From Escherichia coli (GTDB taxonomy: Bacteria > Pseudomonadota > Gammaproteobacteria > Enterobacterales > Enterobacteriaceae), in the NCBI RefSeq assembly GCF_965641715.1, contig NZ_OZ282453.1: DNA of 64,000 nt. The stretch is one strand, 5' to 3'. Shown here in pieces: positions 9,273 to 14,690 of this stretch. How positions within the stretch are numbered: the stretch's first letter is position 1; the number at the start of each line of letters is the position of its first letter. The notes beneath the pieces are model-generated. The model made no database searches. It had not been told where the DNA came from and worked only from the letters and a program-made list of their open reading frames with translations. The position numbers and the translations under genes were made by a program.

Positions 9273-10613
9273 GTGACTACATTAACGCTTGTTTTAACAG
9301 CAGTAGGGTCTGTTTTACTGCTGCTGTTTTTAGTCATGAAGGCGCGTATGCACGCTTTCCTGGCTTTGATGGTGGTGTCCATGGGGGCTGGCCTTTTTTC
9401 CGGTATGCCGCTCGATAAAATCGCAGCGACGATGGAAAAAGGGATGGGAGGCACCCTCGGCTTCCTGGCGGTGGTTGTCGCCCTGGGAGCTATGTTTGGC
9501 AAGATCTTACATGAAACCGGCGCAGTCGATCAGATTGCCGTCAAAATGCTCAAATCCTTCGGTCACAGCCGCGCGCATTATGCCATCGGCCTTGCGGGGC
9601 TGGTCTGTGCGCTACCGCTGTTCTTTGAAGTGGCGATTGTTCTGCTGATTAGCGTTGCTTTCTCAATGGCGCGCCACACCGGTACGAACCTGGTGAAGCT
9701 GGTAATCCCATTATTCGCAGGCGTGGCGGCAGCGGCGGCGTTCCTGGTGCCAGGGCCAGCGCCAATGCTGCTGGCATCGCAGATGAACGCCGATTTTGGC
9801 TGGATGATCCTGATTGGCCTGTGTGCGGCAATTCCGGGAATGATTATTGCCGGGCCGCTGTGGGGTAACTTCATCAGCCGTTACGTTGAGCTGCATATTC
9901 CTGATGACATCAGCGAGCCGCATCTCGGCGAAGGCAAAATGCCGTCCTTCGGATTCAGCCTGTCGCTGATCCTGCTGCCGCTGGTGCTGGTGGGGCTGAA
10001 AACCATTGCCGCGCGTTTTGTGCCAGAAGGCTCTACCGCTTACGAATGGTTCGAGTTTATTGGTCATCCGTTTACCGCGATTCTGGTTGCTTGTCTGGTA
10101 GCGATTTATGGCCTGGCAATGCGTCAGGGCATGCCAAAAGACAAAGTGATGGAGATTTGCGGTCACGCGCTGCAACCGGCGGGGATCATTCTGCTGGTGA
10201 TTGGTGCGGGCGGCGTGTTCAAACAGGTGCTGGTTGACTCTGGCGTAGGTCCGGCACTGGGCGAAGCGTTAACCGGCATGGGCCTGCCGATTGCTATCAC
10301 CTGCTTCGTGCTGGCCGCTGCAGTGCGCATCATTCAGGGTTCTGCAACCGTTGCCTGTTTAACGGCGGTGGGACTGGTGATGCCGGTTATTGAACAACTG
10401 AACTACTCCGGTGCGCAAATGGCGGCGCTGTCGATTTGTATCGCCGGTGGTTCGATTGTTGTCAGCCACGTTAACGACGCTGGTTTCTGGTTGTTCGGTA
10501 AATTTACCGGCGCGACCGAAGCCGAAACGCTGAAAACCTGGACCATGATGGAAACCATCCTCGGCACTGTCGGTGCCATCGTTGGGATGATTGCGTTCCA
10601 GCTGTTGAGTTAA
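9273..10613 (+). CDS. gntU: low-affinity gluconate:H+ symporter (GntP family)
   Basis: 446-aa polytopic membrane ORF beginning GTG (MTTLTLVLTAVGSV...); paralogous to gntT in this window. Confidence 0.9.
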   Translation: MTTLTLVLTAVGSVLLLLFLVMKARMHAFLALMVVSMGAGLFSGMPLDKIAATMEKGMGGTLGFLAVVVALGAMFGKILHETGAVDQIAVKMLKSFGHSRAHYAIGLAGLVCALPLFFEVAIVLLISVAFSMARHTGTNLVKLVIPLFAGVAAAAAFLVPGPAPMLLASQMNADFGWMILIGLCAAIPGMIIAGPLWGNFISRYVELHIPDDISEPHLGEGKMPSFGFSLSLILLPLVLVGLKTIAARFVPEGSTAYEWFEFIGHPFTAILVACLVAIYGLAMRQGMPKDKVMEICGHALQPAGIILLVIGAGGVFKQVLVDSGVGPALGEALTGMGLPIAITCFVLAAAVRIIQGSATVACLTAVGLVMPVIEQLNYSGAQMAALSICIAGGSIVVSHVNDAGFWLFGKFTGATEAETLKTWTMMETILGTVGAIVGMIAFQLLS

Positions 10614-10625
10614 TTACTGCGACAA

Positions 10626-10665
10626 ATTACTGCGAGCTTGCTCGCAGTAATTCATTTCTCTTTTC
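10626..10665 (+). terminator. gntU terminator hairpin
   Basis: Perfect inverted repeat ATTACTGCGA (10626..10635) / TCGCAGTAAT (10642..10651) followed by TCATTTCTCTTTTC. Confidence 0.6.
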
Positions 10666-10698
10666 TCCTCTCTTCATCTTTTTGATCTCTCTCGCAAA

Positions 10699-10747
10699 TT
10701 TACCTGCAAATAATCCGTTCTAATCACTGCCTAAAGATCGCAGGAGA
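10699..10747 (+). promoter_or_regulatory. candidate sigma70 promoter and RBS for the RecQ-like gene
   Basis: TTTACC (10699..10704), 16-nt spacer, TAATCA (10721..10726); AGGAGA (10742..10747) 5 nt upstream of the ATG at 10753. Confidence 0.3.
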
Positions 10748-10752
10748 TAAAG

Positions 10753-12849
10753 ATGGAAAAGCACGCAGCTGAATTGCTTTTACAGCGGATGTTAGGAAAT
10801 ACCACCGCTACTTTCAGGGAAGGGCAATGGGAAGCCATAGACGCGGTGGTGAACCAACGGCGAAAACTGCTGGTTGTCCAACGCACTGGCTGGGGGAAAA
10901 GTGCTGTGTACTTCATCGCCAGTAAAATCTTCCGCGATCGCGGCGCTGGCCCGACAATTATCATCTCTCCTTTGCTTGCCCTGATGCGTAACCAGGTTGC
11001 CGCCGCTGAACGGTTAGGTATTACGGCTGAAACGTTGAATTCTACAAACAGAGAAGAATGGCAGCGCATTAGCGATAAGTTGCTGCAAGGTGAGGTCGAT
11101 TGCTTGCTGGTTTCCCCGGAACGTTTGGCAAACCAGGACTTTATCGAAACGGTTTTATATCCTATAGCCGATCGTATTGGCTTGCTTGTGGTCGACGAGG
11201 CGCACTGCATCTCTGATTGGGGCCACGATTTTCGCCCGGATTACCGACGTATATTAGATATTTTGCGCCAACTACCTGCGAATACCCCTGTTCTGGGTAC
11301 AACCGCGACAGCGAATAACCGTGTCGTTGAGGATATCCGTCAGCAATTGGGTGACATTGTGATTCAGCGTGGAACGCTGGCTCGCGAAAGTTTGGCGCTT
11401 GATGCCTTAGTCTTAGGTGAACAGTCATCCCGTCTGGCATGGTTAGCAACGGTTATCCCTCAGTTTTCCAAATCGGGAATTGTTTATACCCTGACTACTC
11501 GCGATGCCGAACTTGTCGCCGAGTGGTTAAGGAAAAATGGTATCAGTGCATTTGCTTACTACAGCGGCGTGACTTGCGAAGGCGCGGAAGATTCTAATAC
11601 TGCCAGGGAATATCTGGAGCAGGCGTTGCTGGCAAATAAAATTAAAGTGCTGGTTGCGACAACGGCGCTGGGAATGGGCTTTGACAAACCGGATTTGGGG
11701 TTTGTTATTCATTACCAGATGCCAGGTTCGATAGTTGGTTACTACCAACAGGTGGGGCGTGCCGGTCGCGGTATCGATTCTGCTGTTGGCATACTGCTTT
11801 GCGGCAGTGAAGACCGTGCTATTCATAAATTCTTCCGTGAAAGCGCCTTTCCTGCGGAGGCGCAAATTCATGAAATACTCAACGTACTTAGCGTGAATGA
11901 CGGTCTTACCTTACGAGGCATTGAACAACGGACGAATCTCCGTTATGGGCAAATAGAAAAAGCACTGAAATTATTGGTAGCTGAAAATCCATCGCCTGTG
12001 GTGTATACCGAGAAATTATGGCGCAGAACAATTGTCAGTTTTTCTCCTGACCATGAACGAATTAACCATTTGATGAATCAGAGAAAAAGTGAGCTGGCAG
12101 ACGTTGAAAGCTATATCACGACCAAGGAGTGCAAAATGCAATTTCTGCGCCGCGCACTCGATGAGCCAGGTGCCGAACATTGTGGTAAATGTAGCAGTTG
12201 TCTTCAGCATCCGTTGTTGTCGCCCGACATTGATAGCGGCTTACTCCATGCGGCAAACTTATTTATTAAACACGCTGACCTGCCATTAAATCTCAATAAA
12301 CAGGTGGCAGCTGGGGCTTTTACGCAATACGGATTTAAAGGGAACTTGCCTGCGAGTTTACAAGGATCTACGGGGCGAATCCTTTCTCGTTGGGGAGATT
12401 CCGGGTGGGGAAAGCAGGTAGCACAGGAGAAAAAAACGGGGCGATTCAGTGATGAACTGGTGGAGGCATGTGCGGAAATGGTTCGCCAACGCTGGAATCC
12501 GCATCCTGAACCAACCTGGGTATGCTGCGTTCCTTCATTAAAGCACCTCGACCTGGTTCCTGATTTTGCCCGGCGACTGGCGGCGAAACTTGGCTTACCT
12601 TTTATTGATGCCATTGAAAAAGTCGTGGACAATCCACCGCAGAAAATGCAGCAAAACCGTTTCCACCAGTGTCAAAATCTCGACGGGGCGTTTGTGATTA
12701 CCCCTCCTTTGATGCCTGGTCCGGCGTTGCTGGTTGACGATATCGTGGATTCTGCATGGACGCTGACAGTTCTGACAGCACTGTTACGCCAGGCAGGTTG
12801 CCCGACGGTTTATCCTCTTGCCCTTGCTTCTACCTCGGTAAAAAATTGA
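10753..12849 (+). CDS. RecQ-like superfamily-2 DNA helicase fused to a C-terminal divergent phosphoribosyltransferase (ComF/GntX-like) domain; candidate toxin/effector of a two-gene module
   Basis: 698-aa ORF. Walker A QRTGWGKSAV, DEAH box LLVVDEAHCISDWGHDFR, motif VI QQVGRAGRG, Cys cluster CKMQ...HCGKCSSC, C-terminal PRTase-like fold with altered PRPP loop (LLVDDIVDSAWTL). Strong AGGAGA RBS. Confidence 0.85.
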   Translation: MEKHAAELLLQRMLGNTTATFREGQWEAIDAVVNQRRKLLVVQRTGWGKSAVYFIASKIFRDRGAGPTIIISPLLALMRNQVAAAERLGITAETLNSTNREEWQRISDKLLQGEVDCLLVSPERLANQDFIETVLYPIADRIGLLVVDEAHCISDWGHDFRPDYRRILDILRQLPANTPVLGTTATANNRVVEDIRQQLGDIVIQRGTLARESLALDALVLGEQSSRLAWLATVIPQFSKSGIVYTLTTRDAELVAEWLRKNGISAFAYYSGVTCEGAEDSNTAREYLEQALLANKIKVLVATTALGMGFDKPDLGFVIHYQMPGSIVGYYQQVGRAGRGIDSAVGILLCGSEDRAIHKFFRESAFPAEAQIHEILNVLSVNDGLTLRGIEQRTNLRYGQIEKALKLLVAENPSPVVYTEKLWRRTIVSFSPDHERINHLMNQRKSELADVESYITTKECKMQFLRRALDEPGAEHCGKCSSCLQHPLLSPDIDSGLLHAANLFIKHADLPLNLNKQVAAGAFTQYGFKGNLPASLQGSTGRILSRWGDSGWGKQVAQEKKTGRFSDELVEACAEMVRQRWNPHPEPTWVCCVPSLKHLDLVPDFARRLAAKLGLPFIDAIEKVVDNPPQKMQQNRFHQCQNLDGAFVITPPLMPGPALLVDDIVDSAWTLTVLTALLRQAGCPTVYPLALASTSVKN

Positions 12850-14051
12850 TGAATCTTTCAGCCAATGCACAAGCAACTCTCCTGCTAACCAGCGATTTTT
12901 CTCGCGCGGCGGCGAGTGAGTATAAACCTCTTAGTAATAGTGAATGGGGGAAGTTTGCATTATGGCTGAAGCACCAACGTATCAGTCCCGCCGAGCTTCT
13001 GGTGCCGCAACCGCAAGAGAAACTTACAGGCTGGAGCGATCCGCGTATTTCTCAGGAGCGTATTCTTGGCTTGCTGGCGCGTGGTCATAGTCTGGCGTTG
13101 GCGGTAGATAAGTGGCAACGCGCCGGTTTATGGATCTTAACCCGCGGAGATGCTGATTATCCCGTTCGCTTGAAAAACCGATTGCGAACGGATGCACCTC
13201 CCGTTTTATTTGGCTGCGGGAATAAAGCATTACTGCAAGCGGAAGGTATGGCGATTGTTGGCTCGCGAGATGCTCCGACTGACGATTTGCGCTATACCCA
13301 ACAACTGGCCGCGAAACTGGCCCAACAGGGGATTTGCGTTATCTCTGGTGGTGCGCGAGGTATTGATGAATGTGCAATGGCGTCGGCACTGGAGGCCGGG
13401 GGAACTGCCGTTGGCGTATTAGCTGATAGCTTGTTAAAAACGAGTACGTTAGTGAAATGGCGTGAAGGGCTTATAGCAGGCAACCTGGTGTTGATTTCGC
13501 CGTTTTACCCAGAGGTACGTTTCACCGTCGGCAATGCGATGGCGCGAAATAAATATATTTATTGCCTTGCTGAAAGCGCAATGGTTGTACGTGCGGGAAT
13601 GACCGGTGGAACGATAACCGGGGCGATGGAGGCATTAAAACATCAGTGGCTGCCTGTGCAGGTTAAACCAAATCAGGATATGCAATCAGCCAATTCACGA
13701 TTAGTAGAAAATGGGGCGTCATGGAGTGCTGAACAGGCTGAGAATGTGACGATCAGACTGCCAGACGTTCCTGGGCTGATGTATGACAGAGCACTCCGTA
13801 ACGCTCAACCAGAACTGTTTTCGCTGCATGAAGATGACGCAAATTACGCAGTAATGCCCGCGTATACGCCTGTCGATTTTTATCAACTCTTTGTGGCGGA
13901 ACTGGCGATCCTTGCAAAGGAATCGATAAGTATTGAAAGGCTGGCGTCTTGTACTGGTTTAACCATCGAACAAATTAGTGTGTGGCTGAACCGCGCAGAA
14001 GAAGAGGGAAGGGTTATCCGATTGGGCGAAGGTCATTATCAGTTCAGGTAA
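12849..14051 (+). CDS. DprA/Smf-like protein; candidate antitoxin/partner of the RecQ-PRTase protein
   Basis: ATG at 12849..12851 overlaps the helicase TGA (12847..12849); 400 aa (MNLSANAQATLLL...); Rossmann signature GMAIVGSRDAPTDDLRYTQQLAAKLAQQGICVISGGARGIDECAMASALEAGG; ORF track extends it upstream in the same frame (12756). Confidence 0.8.
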   Translation: MNLSANAQATLLLTSDFSRAAASEYKPLSNSEWGKFALWLKHQRISPAELLVPQPQEKLTGWSDPRISQERILGLLARGHSLALAVDKWQRAGLWILTRGDADYPVRLKNRLRTDAPPVLFGCGNKALLQAEGMAIVGSRDAPTDDLRYTQQLAAKLAQQGICVISGGARGIDECAMASALEAGGTAVGVLADSLLKTSTLVKWREGLIAGNLVLISPFYPEVRFTVGNAMARNKYIYCLAESAMVVRAGMTGGTITGAMEALKHQWLPVQVKPNQDMQSANSRLVENGASWSAEQAENVTIRLPDVPGLMYDRALRNAQPELFSLHEDDANYAVMPAYTPVDFYQLFVAELAILAKESISIERLASCTGLTIEQISVWLNRAEEEGRVIRLGEGHYQFR

Positions 14052-14053
14052 TA

Positions 14054-14091
14054 AAACAGGTGCCGCGTCTGGTTGTGTGCAGCACCTGTTT
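14054..14091. terminator. inverted repeat / likely bidirectional terminator between the DprA-like gene and yhgN
   Basis: AAACAGGTGC (14054..14063) / GCACCTGTTT (14082..14091), 18-nt loop. Confidence 0.4.
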
Positions 14092-14096
14092 GAACC

Positions 14097-14690
14097 TTAC
14101 CCCTTCATCCACATTCGAATGCCGTCGAGGAACATCTGGGTTGCCATCATCACCAGAATCAATCCCATCAGGCGTTCAAGTGCGTTCACCCCTTTCTCGC
14201 CCAGCAGACGTAAAAATAGCGAAGACTGTAGCAGGATGACAAAGGTGCCGCCCCAGGCCAGCAGCAGAGCAATCACCAGATGTCCCATCTGATTCGGGTA
14301 CTGATGAGACAACAACATCAGCGTGGCGAGAATAGTTGGCCCGGCGACCAGCGGAATTGCCAGCGGCACGATAAATGGCTCTTCACCTGCCGGAAGCCCG
14401 CTGCTATTTCCTGAAGCGCTGGGGAAAATCATCTTAATGGCAATTAGAAACAGAATGATGCCGCCAGAAATGGAGACGGTTTCTGCTCGCAGGCTGAGAA
14501 ATGCCAGAATTTTCTCACCCGCAAACAGGAACACCAGCATCACCAGGAGAGCAATAAGCAACTCTCGCACCATGATTGCCCGCCGTCTTTTCGGTTCAGT
14601 ATGTTTCAGTACGGACATGAAAATAGGTAGGTTTCCGAGCGGATCCATAATCAGGATCAATAAAACTGCTGCAGAAATGATTTCATTCAT
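14097..14690 (-). CDS. yhgN: MarC-family inner membrane protein
   Basis: 197-aa multi-TM ORF (MNEIISAAVLLILIMDPLGNLPIF...); adjacent to asd as in K-12 (recalled). Confidence 0.9.
   Translation of the reverse strand: MNEIISAAVLLILIMDPLGNLPIFMSVLKHTEPKRRRAIMVRELLIALLVMLVFLFAGEKILAFLSLRAETVSISGGIILFLIAIKMIFPSASGNSSGLPAGEEPFIVPLAIPLVAGPTILATLMLLSHQYPNQMGHLVIALLLAWGGTFVILLQSSLFLRLLGEKGVNALERLMGLILVMMATQMFLDGIRMWMKG

Follow-up and report, generated by a model that had tools for sequence, protein, structure and literature searches.

At the end of gntU in Escherichia coli, directly upstream of a RecQ-like/DprA-like gene pair that is present in some genomes and absent from others, a short sequence occurs three times, twice in direct and once in inverted orientation. 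The original prediction had read the distal pair as the gntU terminator hairpin and the extra direct copy as a possible insertion scar or recombination site marking a boundary of the RecQ/DprA island. This raises the question whether the cluster records the arrival of the gene pair in the chromosome or belongs to the end of the gluconate operon. It was addressed in a window (the whole stretch of 64,000 nucleotides of E. coli DNA that was analysed) and by comparison with other genomes. The comparison makes it probable that the hairpin and its T-rich tail are the Rho-independent terminator of gntKU in the module-carrying haplotype, insulating the toxin operon, and that the extra copy is a spacer turned arm-like by substitutions.

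Anatomy of the repeat cluster and its neighbourhood

The gene order in this region is gntR-gntK-gntU / RecQ-like / DprA-like / yhgN (minus strand) / asd / glgB. The open reading frame of gntU (9273-10613, plus strand) encodes a gluconate permease, as judged from a Pfam GntP_permease match of 561 bits and the RefSeq annotation of an identical junction, and ends with the stop codon TAA at 10611-10613. The 10-mer ATTACTGCGA was found at 10613-10622 and 10626-10635 on the plus strand and at 10642-10651 on the minus strand, exactly where it had been placed before, within the sequence TAATTACTGCGACAAATTACTGCGAGCTTGCTCGCAGTAAT (10611-10651). The direct repeat is slightly longer than the 10 bp first described: the 11 nt AATTACTGCGA are present at 10612-10622 and 10625-10635 with a period of 13, and once more, inverted, at 10642-10652. 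The inverted repeat consists of two perfectly complementary halves of 13 nt each (10625-10637 and 10640-10652), separated by 2 nt. From 10611 to 10652 the layout is TAA, TTACTGCGACA, AATTACTGCGAGC, TT and GCTCGCAGTAATT. Copy 1 (10612-10622, plus strand) is a direct copy of the hairpin 5' arm that is perfect only in Escherichia; it overlaps the last 2 bases of the stop codon and fills the spacer of about 11-12 nt between the stop and the hairpin (10614-10624). Copy 2 lies in the 5' arm of the terminator hairpin (10625-10637, plus strand) and the inverted copy in its 3' arm (10640-10652, plus strand), both assigned by fold and covariation; in the RNA they form 12 bp closed by the loop CUUG.

Three exact copies in 41 nt are far beyond chance. 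Beyond these three, no exact match to the repeat was found on either strand of the 64 kb. When up to one mismatch was allowed, 6 further scattered matches appeared, which brings the total to 9 versus 4.0 +/- 1.9 expected for 64 kb. The cluster is not a dispersed palindrome of the REP/BIME type, which has many copies per genome, as it was found in one place per genome in 1650 genomes and is unique in the 64-kb window.

The gene that follows the cluster, psyrT (rqlH; 10753-12849, plus strand), encodes an intact RecQ-like helicase toxin of 698 aa (PADLOC PsyrT 1066 bits; Pfam DEAD and Helicase_C; PMC4670107). It is followed by psyrA (rqlI; 12756-14051, plus strand), which encodes a DprA-like antitoxin (PADLOC PsyrA 671 bits, residues 32-431). 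Although the psyrA reading frame opens at 12756, its true start is likely the ATG at 12849, which is suggested by the residues covered in the PADLOC match, by the sequence at the psyrT stop and by the 401-aa length of orthologues. A RecQ-like PsyrT followed on the same strand by an overlapping DprA-like PsyrA is the arrangement of PsyrTA/RqlHI, and judged by their sequence the two genes are the published rqlHI/PsyrTA pair. In ExPEC, rqlH-rqlI was described as a two-gene operon separate from its neighbours (Russell & Mulvey 2015, PMC4670107). Toxin-antitoxin or anti-phage activity was reported for RqlHI of E. coli F11 (PMC4670107), the present allele being known by sequence. The likeness to the published system, which consists of the gene order and the overlap in the two genes after the hairpin, concerns these neighbouring genes and not the repeat; PMC4670107 makes no mention of an upstream hairpin or of the junction. 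The junction in the window is 100% identical to that of O157:H7 strains, and psyrT is intact in the window whereas it is disrupted in O157:H7 PV15-279.

The distal repeat pair forms a conserved terminator-like hairpin

The proposal that the distal pair is the gntU terminator hairpin was supported: the structure is called terminator-like, it dominates thermodynamically, and compensatory changes maintain it across seven lineages. Terminator-like scoring returned 12 pairs, of which 5 are G-C, a 4-nt loop and the tail CATTTCTCTT. The free energy of the hairpin is -16.6 kcal/mol and the repeat region folds better than 200 out of 200 shuffles (z = -4.4). Directly 3' of the stem lies the T-rich tail CATTTCTCTTTTCTCC (10653-10668, plus strand), with 8 U in its first 12 nt (CAUUUCUCUUUU). 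The T-tract of E. coli is broken up by C's, and the tract is weaker in Silvania and Citrobacter. The hairpin begins about 12 nt past the TAA of gntU, on the same strand, and gntU is the last gene of gntKU.

Relatives in which the module is linked to gntU were found by protein search and exact-protein contig look-ups in Citrobacter freundii, Silvania hatchlandensis and four metagenomic Enterobacteriaceae lineages. The hairpin is at the same place in all seven gntU-linked lineages, and in each of these module-carrying Enterobacteriaceae (7/7) the distance from the stop to the arm is 12-14 nt. Six of the seven have exactly the same core, CTGCGAG-N4-CTCGCAG, while the intergenic DNA around it is ~50% diverged. 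The outer stem differs by lineage in a compensatory manner: it is AATTA/TAATT in E. coli, ATTG/CAAT in Citrobacter, CATAAG/CTTATG in Silvania and TAGCG/CGCTA in the metagenomic lineage L104. In a gap-free alignment of the seven lineages 97.6% of the cells were paired and 5 of the 12 pairs had changed on both sides. This covariation score was reached by none of 500 shuffles, and pairing collapsed in controls with slid partners. A search of Rfam 15 yielded no family at the gathering threshold (best score 21.4 bits against a threshold of 47 bits; all E-values at least 0.35).

Like enterobacterial Rho-independent terminators, the hairpin has a stem-loop rich in G+C with a U-rich tract on its 3' side, and its stem is lengthened by A/T-rich sequence on the 5' side; it is placed a few nucleotides after the last stop codon of an operon, and compensatory substitutions maintain the stem. 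It differs from typical members of this class in its C-interrupted U-tract, in the direct copy of the 5' arm upstream of it (Escherichia) and in a 7-bp core that is conserved in sequence across genera. The same functional position is taken by the hairpin of the K-12-type gntU-yhgN spacer, GCCCGGTAG...CTACCGGG followed by TTCTTTT, the sequence of which is unrelated. Termination activity is what these sequence features would predict. The hairpin of the module haplotype would then functionally replace the different hairpin of the module-free 56-bp spacer, and would stop gluconate-induced transcription from entering the toxin gene psyrT. The hairpin is best read as an ordinary, previously undescribed terminator with a lineage-specific sequence curiosity, and its description provides a covariation-supported annotation of the gntKU terminator for about 30% of E. 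coli genomes.

The conservation of the 7-bp core exceeds what a terminator needs and may point to a further role that depends on its sequence. Toxin-antitoxin operons are often autoregulated at palindromes, and the three copies or the palindromic core might serve as half-sites for a DNA-binding regulator; a core that is invariant in six of seven lineages amid strongly diverged intergenic DNA would fit such an operator. However, the outer stem covaries to different bases from one lineage to another, as expected for a folded strand and not for a fixed recognition sequence. The centre of the palindrome is ~114 bp upstream of the psyrT start codon, directly past the gntU stop, and at a spacing of 13 bp the direct copies are not in phase with the helical repeat. 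Pfam shows no DNA-binding HTH domain in PsyrT or PsyrA. Finally, the core palindrome was not found ahead of psyrT in any of more than 80 loci outside the gntU context, which implies that it is not a universal PsyrTA element. An operator is accordingly very unlikely.

The module occupies an old presence/absence locus between gntU and yhgN

The variable segment of the window comprises 3483 bp (10614-14096); in its place, E. coli and Citrobacter without the module have 56 bp of unrelated spacer, counted from stop to stop. Among 5424 E. coli genomes matching the region, 1647 carried the module and 3774 the 56-bp gntU-yhgN spacer. Carriers and module-free strains align precisely up to the final base of the gntU stop codon and again from exactly the yhgN stop. 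The short spacer, GTTTGTTCGCCCGGTAGTTGTGACGCTACCGGGTTCTTTTCGAAAAACTCTCCTCG, contains a hairpin and T-tract of its own, and neither end of the 3483-bp segment has anything in common with it. The difference between the alleles hence involves the whole stop-to-stop spacer, with no single copy of the repeat retained: in module-free spacers (K-12-type, O145 and Citrobacter) 0 of the 3 copies were present. The case in which module-free strains possess all three copies, the cluster being simply their native terminator, was thus not encountered.

Two of these observations are what would be expected if copy 1 were a target-site duplication or an att-like crossover site left by integration of RecQ/DprA after gntU. 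The homology between carriers and non-carriers breaks at the very base that ends the gntU stop and at which copy 1 starts, so that a short repeat stands right where the alignment ends, as it does for att sites and target-site duplications; and none of the copies occurs in module-free strains. Such sites have a partner at the other boundary, however, and no k-mer of 8 nt or longer, direct or inverted, is shared between 10550-10720 and 13990-14160. The segment contains psyrT and psyrA alone, with no recombinase, transposase or tRNA. The empty allele retains no copy and has an unrelated spacer that is conserved between E. coli and Citrobacter. Moreover, the right-end break likewise falls exactly at a stop codon, that of yhgN, as expected where only coding sequence remains alignable. 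Origin of the K-12-type spacer by deletion of the module was also considered and rejected, since this spacer has nothing in common with the module ends and is itself conserved in Citrobacter. Plasmid and phage collections searched with the module and its junctions gave no real match (three 'plasmid' records were mislabelled chromosomes that match the flanks only); the native ends of the module are therefore not definable in that way.

The age of the junction bears on the same issue. The PsyrT relatives in the six other gntU-linked lineages have 69-74% identity and the same gntU / psyrT / psyrA position with a spacer of 140-144 bp. yhgN comes next in five of these six lineages; L104 is without it, and L107 has an AIM24-family gene at this place. 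A scan of genome contigs with PsyrT returned, among the matches listed, relatives of ~65% identity or less in other contexts. The gntU-linked PsyrT proteins form one clade, apart from the psyrT of other contexts, and the topology of this clade is that of the gntU tree. Citrobacter is biallelic, as genomes with an identical YhgN that are without the module carry 56 bp of spacer that are homologous to the K-12-type sequence. Within each species gntU is 98-99% identical between carriers and non-carriers. The shared slot, the matching trees and the two alleles of Citrobacter indicate that the junction is much older than E. coli and that both allele classes are shared across genera. With alleles common to Escherichia and Citrobacter and a module tree that mirrors the host tree, the sequences suggest that gntU|yhgN is a long-lived presence/absence polymorphism of a defence/TA system, kept without mobility machinery. 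Because the module has sat in the same slot and co-diverged with gntU across seven lineages, a scar of integration at this point becomes still less plausible.

Copy 1 arose from the spacer within Escherichia

Copy 1 was compared with the orthologous spacers of the other lineages. The identity between the spacer and the 5' arm is 10/11 in E. coli (p = 5e-5, shuffles). In the six other lineages it is 3-6/11, with p at least 0.19 in five of them and a nominal p = 0.04 for L104 (6/11). The length of the spacer is conserved with or without the direct repeat, and the spacers are orthologous: TTACTGCGACA in E. coli corresponds to TTACTGTTGCA in L107 and to TTAAGCTGTTACA in Citrobacter and the JGI lineage. 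Since six lineages share the hairpin junction but have no significant direct copy, the direct copy must be younger than the junction. The hypothesis that a 13-bp tandem duplication gave rise to copy 1 was rejected, as the distance of 12-14 nt is equal with and without the repeat, and it is also contradicted by the orthologous spacer itself, in which TTA..CTG..ACA is common to L107 and Citrobacter. As far as comparative sequence can tell, copy 1 is thus orthologous spacer, not inserted DNA, that arose via Escherichia-specific substitutions.

This also bears on the insertion scar, for which no added DNA is left to account for. The idea that the extra copy marks the island boundary found no support, as the repeat has no partner at the other boundary, no recombinase in the segment and no copy in the empty allele, and is younger than the junction; in all of this it differs from att sites and target-site duplications. 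A scar is extremely unlikely. The cluster is no mobile-element boundary and consequently cannot be used to define how rqlHI/PsyrTA entered the chromosome.

The direction of the changes could be read from the PsyrT tree, in which L107 and L104 are basal and E. coli is sister to a Citrobacter/Silvania group, with Citrobacter and JGI nested. Stem pair 6:25 is G:C in all six non-Escherichia lineages. With L107 and L104 basal and Citrobacter and JGI nested, the TT in the spacer and the G:C at 6:25 are ancestral, and the CG and A:T of E. coli are derived. The spacer would accordingly have become identical to the 5' arm in Escherichia when its TT changed to CG and the stem pair changed from G:C to A:T. 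There are four Escherichia-specific substitutions, all of which raise the three-way identity. The change from TT to CG is a tandem double substitution at exactly the two mismatched positions, the matched positions being unchanged.

It might be argued that copy 1 became arm-like by chance, via independent point substitutions. In the ancestral spacer 5-6 of 11 positions were already those of the arm, just four substitutions were needed, two of these follow the ordinary compensatory path from G:C via G:U to A:U, and the feature was chosen post hoc. This explanation is unlikely in view of the p-value for the 10/11 identity, of the double substitution that hits the two mismatches and spares every matched position, and of the fact that all four changes act in the same direction. 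Most likely, on comparative grounds, the cause is a templated, gene-conversion-like mutation between close quasi-repeats, either by quasipalindrome template switching or by slipped misalignment. Correction of quasipalindromes by template switching is an established mutational mechanism in E. coli (PMC7202029). As in the published cases, an imperfect inverted repeat (the ancestral spacer versus the 3' arm) was perfected by a clustered multi-base change, an outcome that is the signature of this mechanism; unlike there, the mechanism is here deduced from comparative sequence, and slipped misalignment between direct quasi-repeats would give the same product. Selection or coincidence may also have produced the pattern, as four substitutions in a single lineage do not distinguish these from a templated origin.

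No intermediate state was found within Escherichia: a genome labelled E. fergusonii already has the perfect cluster, identical to that of E. coli, next to a downstream spacer that is different at six sites. The cluster is unchanged in 1649 of 1650 E. coli carriers, and it is identical in divergent E. coli alleles. The one exception, strain HB6, has exactly lost one 13-bp unit, so that its hairpin abuts the stop codon, as expected when a direct repeat slips. Beyond spacing, no function of its own can be demonstrated for copy 1, and as a direct repeat it can mediate such 13-bp slippage deletions. That it was kept in all carriers except HB6 could reflect selection on copy 1, not just on the length of the spacer.

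Alternative pairing, ribosome spacing and the psyrTA transcription unit

All 11 nt of copy 1 are complementary to the 3' arm, and it could in principle compete with copy 2. The resulting structure has 11 bp, a 19-nt loop and a free energy of -11.8 kcal/mol, which is 4.8 kcal/mol weaker than the canonical hairpin. Its 3' arm and the U-tail at which it ends are those of the canonical hairpin, and for this reason it is not an antiterminator. An attenuator, in the sense of a mutually exclusive structure that blocks the terminator, was accordingly not recognized, the alternative being weaker, ending at the same U-tail and not conserved across the lineages.

A terminating ribosome was assumed to block the mRNA through +12 from the stop codon. 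When folding was carried out with the mRNA blocked through this position, the two-copy wild type still reached -16.6 kcal/mol and the one-copy form of HB6 just -0.9 kcal/mol. A distance of 12-14 nt from the stop would place the 5' arm just beyond the footprint of a ribosome terminating at gntU. In this model, blocking by the ribosome would account both for the ~12-14-nt spacer that is conserved everywhere and for the rarity of the one-unit deletion.

The same footprint allows a different role for copy 1, that of a decoy 5' arm in a translation-sensing attenuator. Whenever the gntU stop is free of a terminating ribosome, the 3' arm would be taken up by copy 1, and the poor terminator with the 19-nt loop would permit read-through into psyrTA. 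Copy 1 does lie wholly inside the expected footprint of the terminating ribosome, and a scan of the plus strand for sigma-70 sites between the hairpin and psyrT found none, so that the psyrTA promoter was not located there. Given this result, some control of psyrTA by read-through may exist. The complementarity noted above and the retention of copy 1 in 1649/1650 carriers would also fit a decoy. This reading is nonetheless quite improbable. Copy 2 adjoins the 3' arm and would nucleate first, the decoy pairing is the weaker one, neither pairing dispenses with the common 3' arm and U-tail, and the direct repeat is missing from six of the seven lineages that have the hairpin and the module. In addition, rqlHI was reported as a two-gene operon set apart from its neighbours (PMC4670107).

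A related possibility is that the triple repeat of Escherichia as such is a selected, translation-coupled control element, in which copy 1, unless masked by a ribosome, competes for the 3' arm and weakens termination. It is considered here because copy 1 is near-universal in spite of a slippage-prone repeat and because psyrTA has no recognizable promoter, but its probability is low. Were it true, PsyrTA expression would follow how actively the gluconate operon is translated, as in a phage-induced shut-off of translation. Plain termination of gntKU by the copy 2 hairpin remains the probable reading.

Between the hairpin and psyrT, the block TTGATCTCTCTCGCAA (10682-10697, plus strand) stood out in the alignment, where it is conserved across genera as TTGATYNCTNTCRCAA; it may belong to the promoter region of psyrTA. 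At the right end of the module a second hairpin, AAACAGGTGC...GCACCTGTTT (14054-14091, no strand assigned), lies between the psyrA stop and the yhgN stop and is terminator-like on both strands (z = -2.9 on the plus and -4.9 on the minus strand); on the minus strand it is followed by UUUUAUUA. By its appearance it could terminate both psyrA and yhgN and would close the unit at the right. The gntU hairpin would then be the left edge of a self-contained transcription unit consisting of a terminator, psyrTA and a bidirectional terminator.

Two alleles at the gntU-yhgN slot

The slot between gntU and yhgN (window 10614-14096) was occupied in both E. coli and Citrobacter by one of two alleles, the PsyrTA module or a 56-bp spacer, as compared at loci L001, L002, L089, L098 and L100. 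The module was present in 1647 E. coli genomes and the spacer in 3774. Either allele class was homologous between the two genera, and the gntU tree matched that of PsyrT. Neither mobility genes nor boundary repeats were found at the module in this slot. The pattern resembles a trans-specific polymorphism of long standing, in which a defence/toxin-antitoxin module is either present or absent. At a coverage of at least 80%, 3 of 5424 E. coli genomes matched neither the K-12-type (module-free) nor the module-type junction; these may have IS insertions or other cargo in the slot.

The right flank was examined in two basal gntU-linked lineages. In L104 (5100-6700) yhgN was missing between psyrA and asd, and in L107 (5778-6500) an AIM24-family gene took its place. 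Given these differences, the slot is less stable at its right boundary than at its left one.

The hairpin at the gntU end

The hairpin downstream of gntU (10625-10652), read as the gntKU terminator, contains a 7-bp core, CTGCGAG/CTCGCAG (10630-10647), that was invariant in sequence in six of the seven lineages having the module beside gntU, while the intergenic DNA around it was about 50% diverged in those lineages. Unlike the core, the outer stem covaried freely. The constraint on the core at the sequence level exceeds the needs of a terminator.

In E. coli HB6 (NZ_CP040305.1; L110 1500-1520) exactly one repeat unit of 13 bp, corresponding to window 10612-10624, was deleted, so that the 5' arm of the hairpin begins within the gntU stop codon. 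This deletion occurred in 1 of 1650 carriers, a complete genome, and may reflect either true slippage or a mistake in the assembly.

The psyrT and psyrA genes

Upstream of psyrT a conserved block, TTGATCTCTCTCGCAA, was located at 10682-10697, its cross-genus form being TTGATYNCTNTCRCAA. A sigma-70 scan between the hairpin and psyrT did not find a plus-strand promoter. In the window psyrT is an intact ORF of 698 aa. The O157:H7 strain PV15-279 (L003) has a junction identical to that of the window; its psyrT has lost 1 bp and carries an insertion of 29 bp (window 11268 and 12539), and it is annotated as a pseudogene, and that of HB6 is likewise flagged. At least some O157:H7 genomes thus have an inactivated toxin gene.

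Both the ORF and the RefSeq annotation place the psyrA start at 12756, which gives a 94-nt overlap with psyrT. The PADLOC match to the product, however, starts only at residue 32, and the orthologues in Citrobacter and Silvania have lengths of 391-401 aa, so the ATG at 12849, which overlaps the psyrT TGA, is probably the true start.

Between the psyrA and yhgN stops lies a right-end hairpin, AAACAGGTGC...GCACCTGTTT (14054-14091), with a T-run after it on either strand (minus-strand z = -4.9). It is likely to be a bidirectional terminator. At this position Citrobacter has another, different hairpin.
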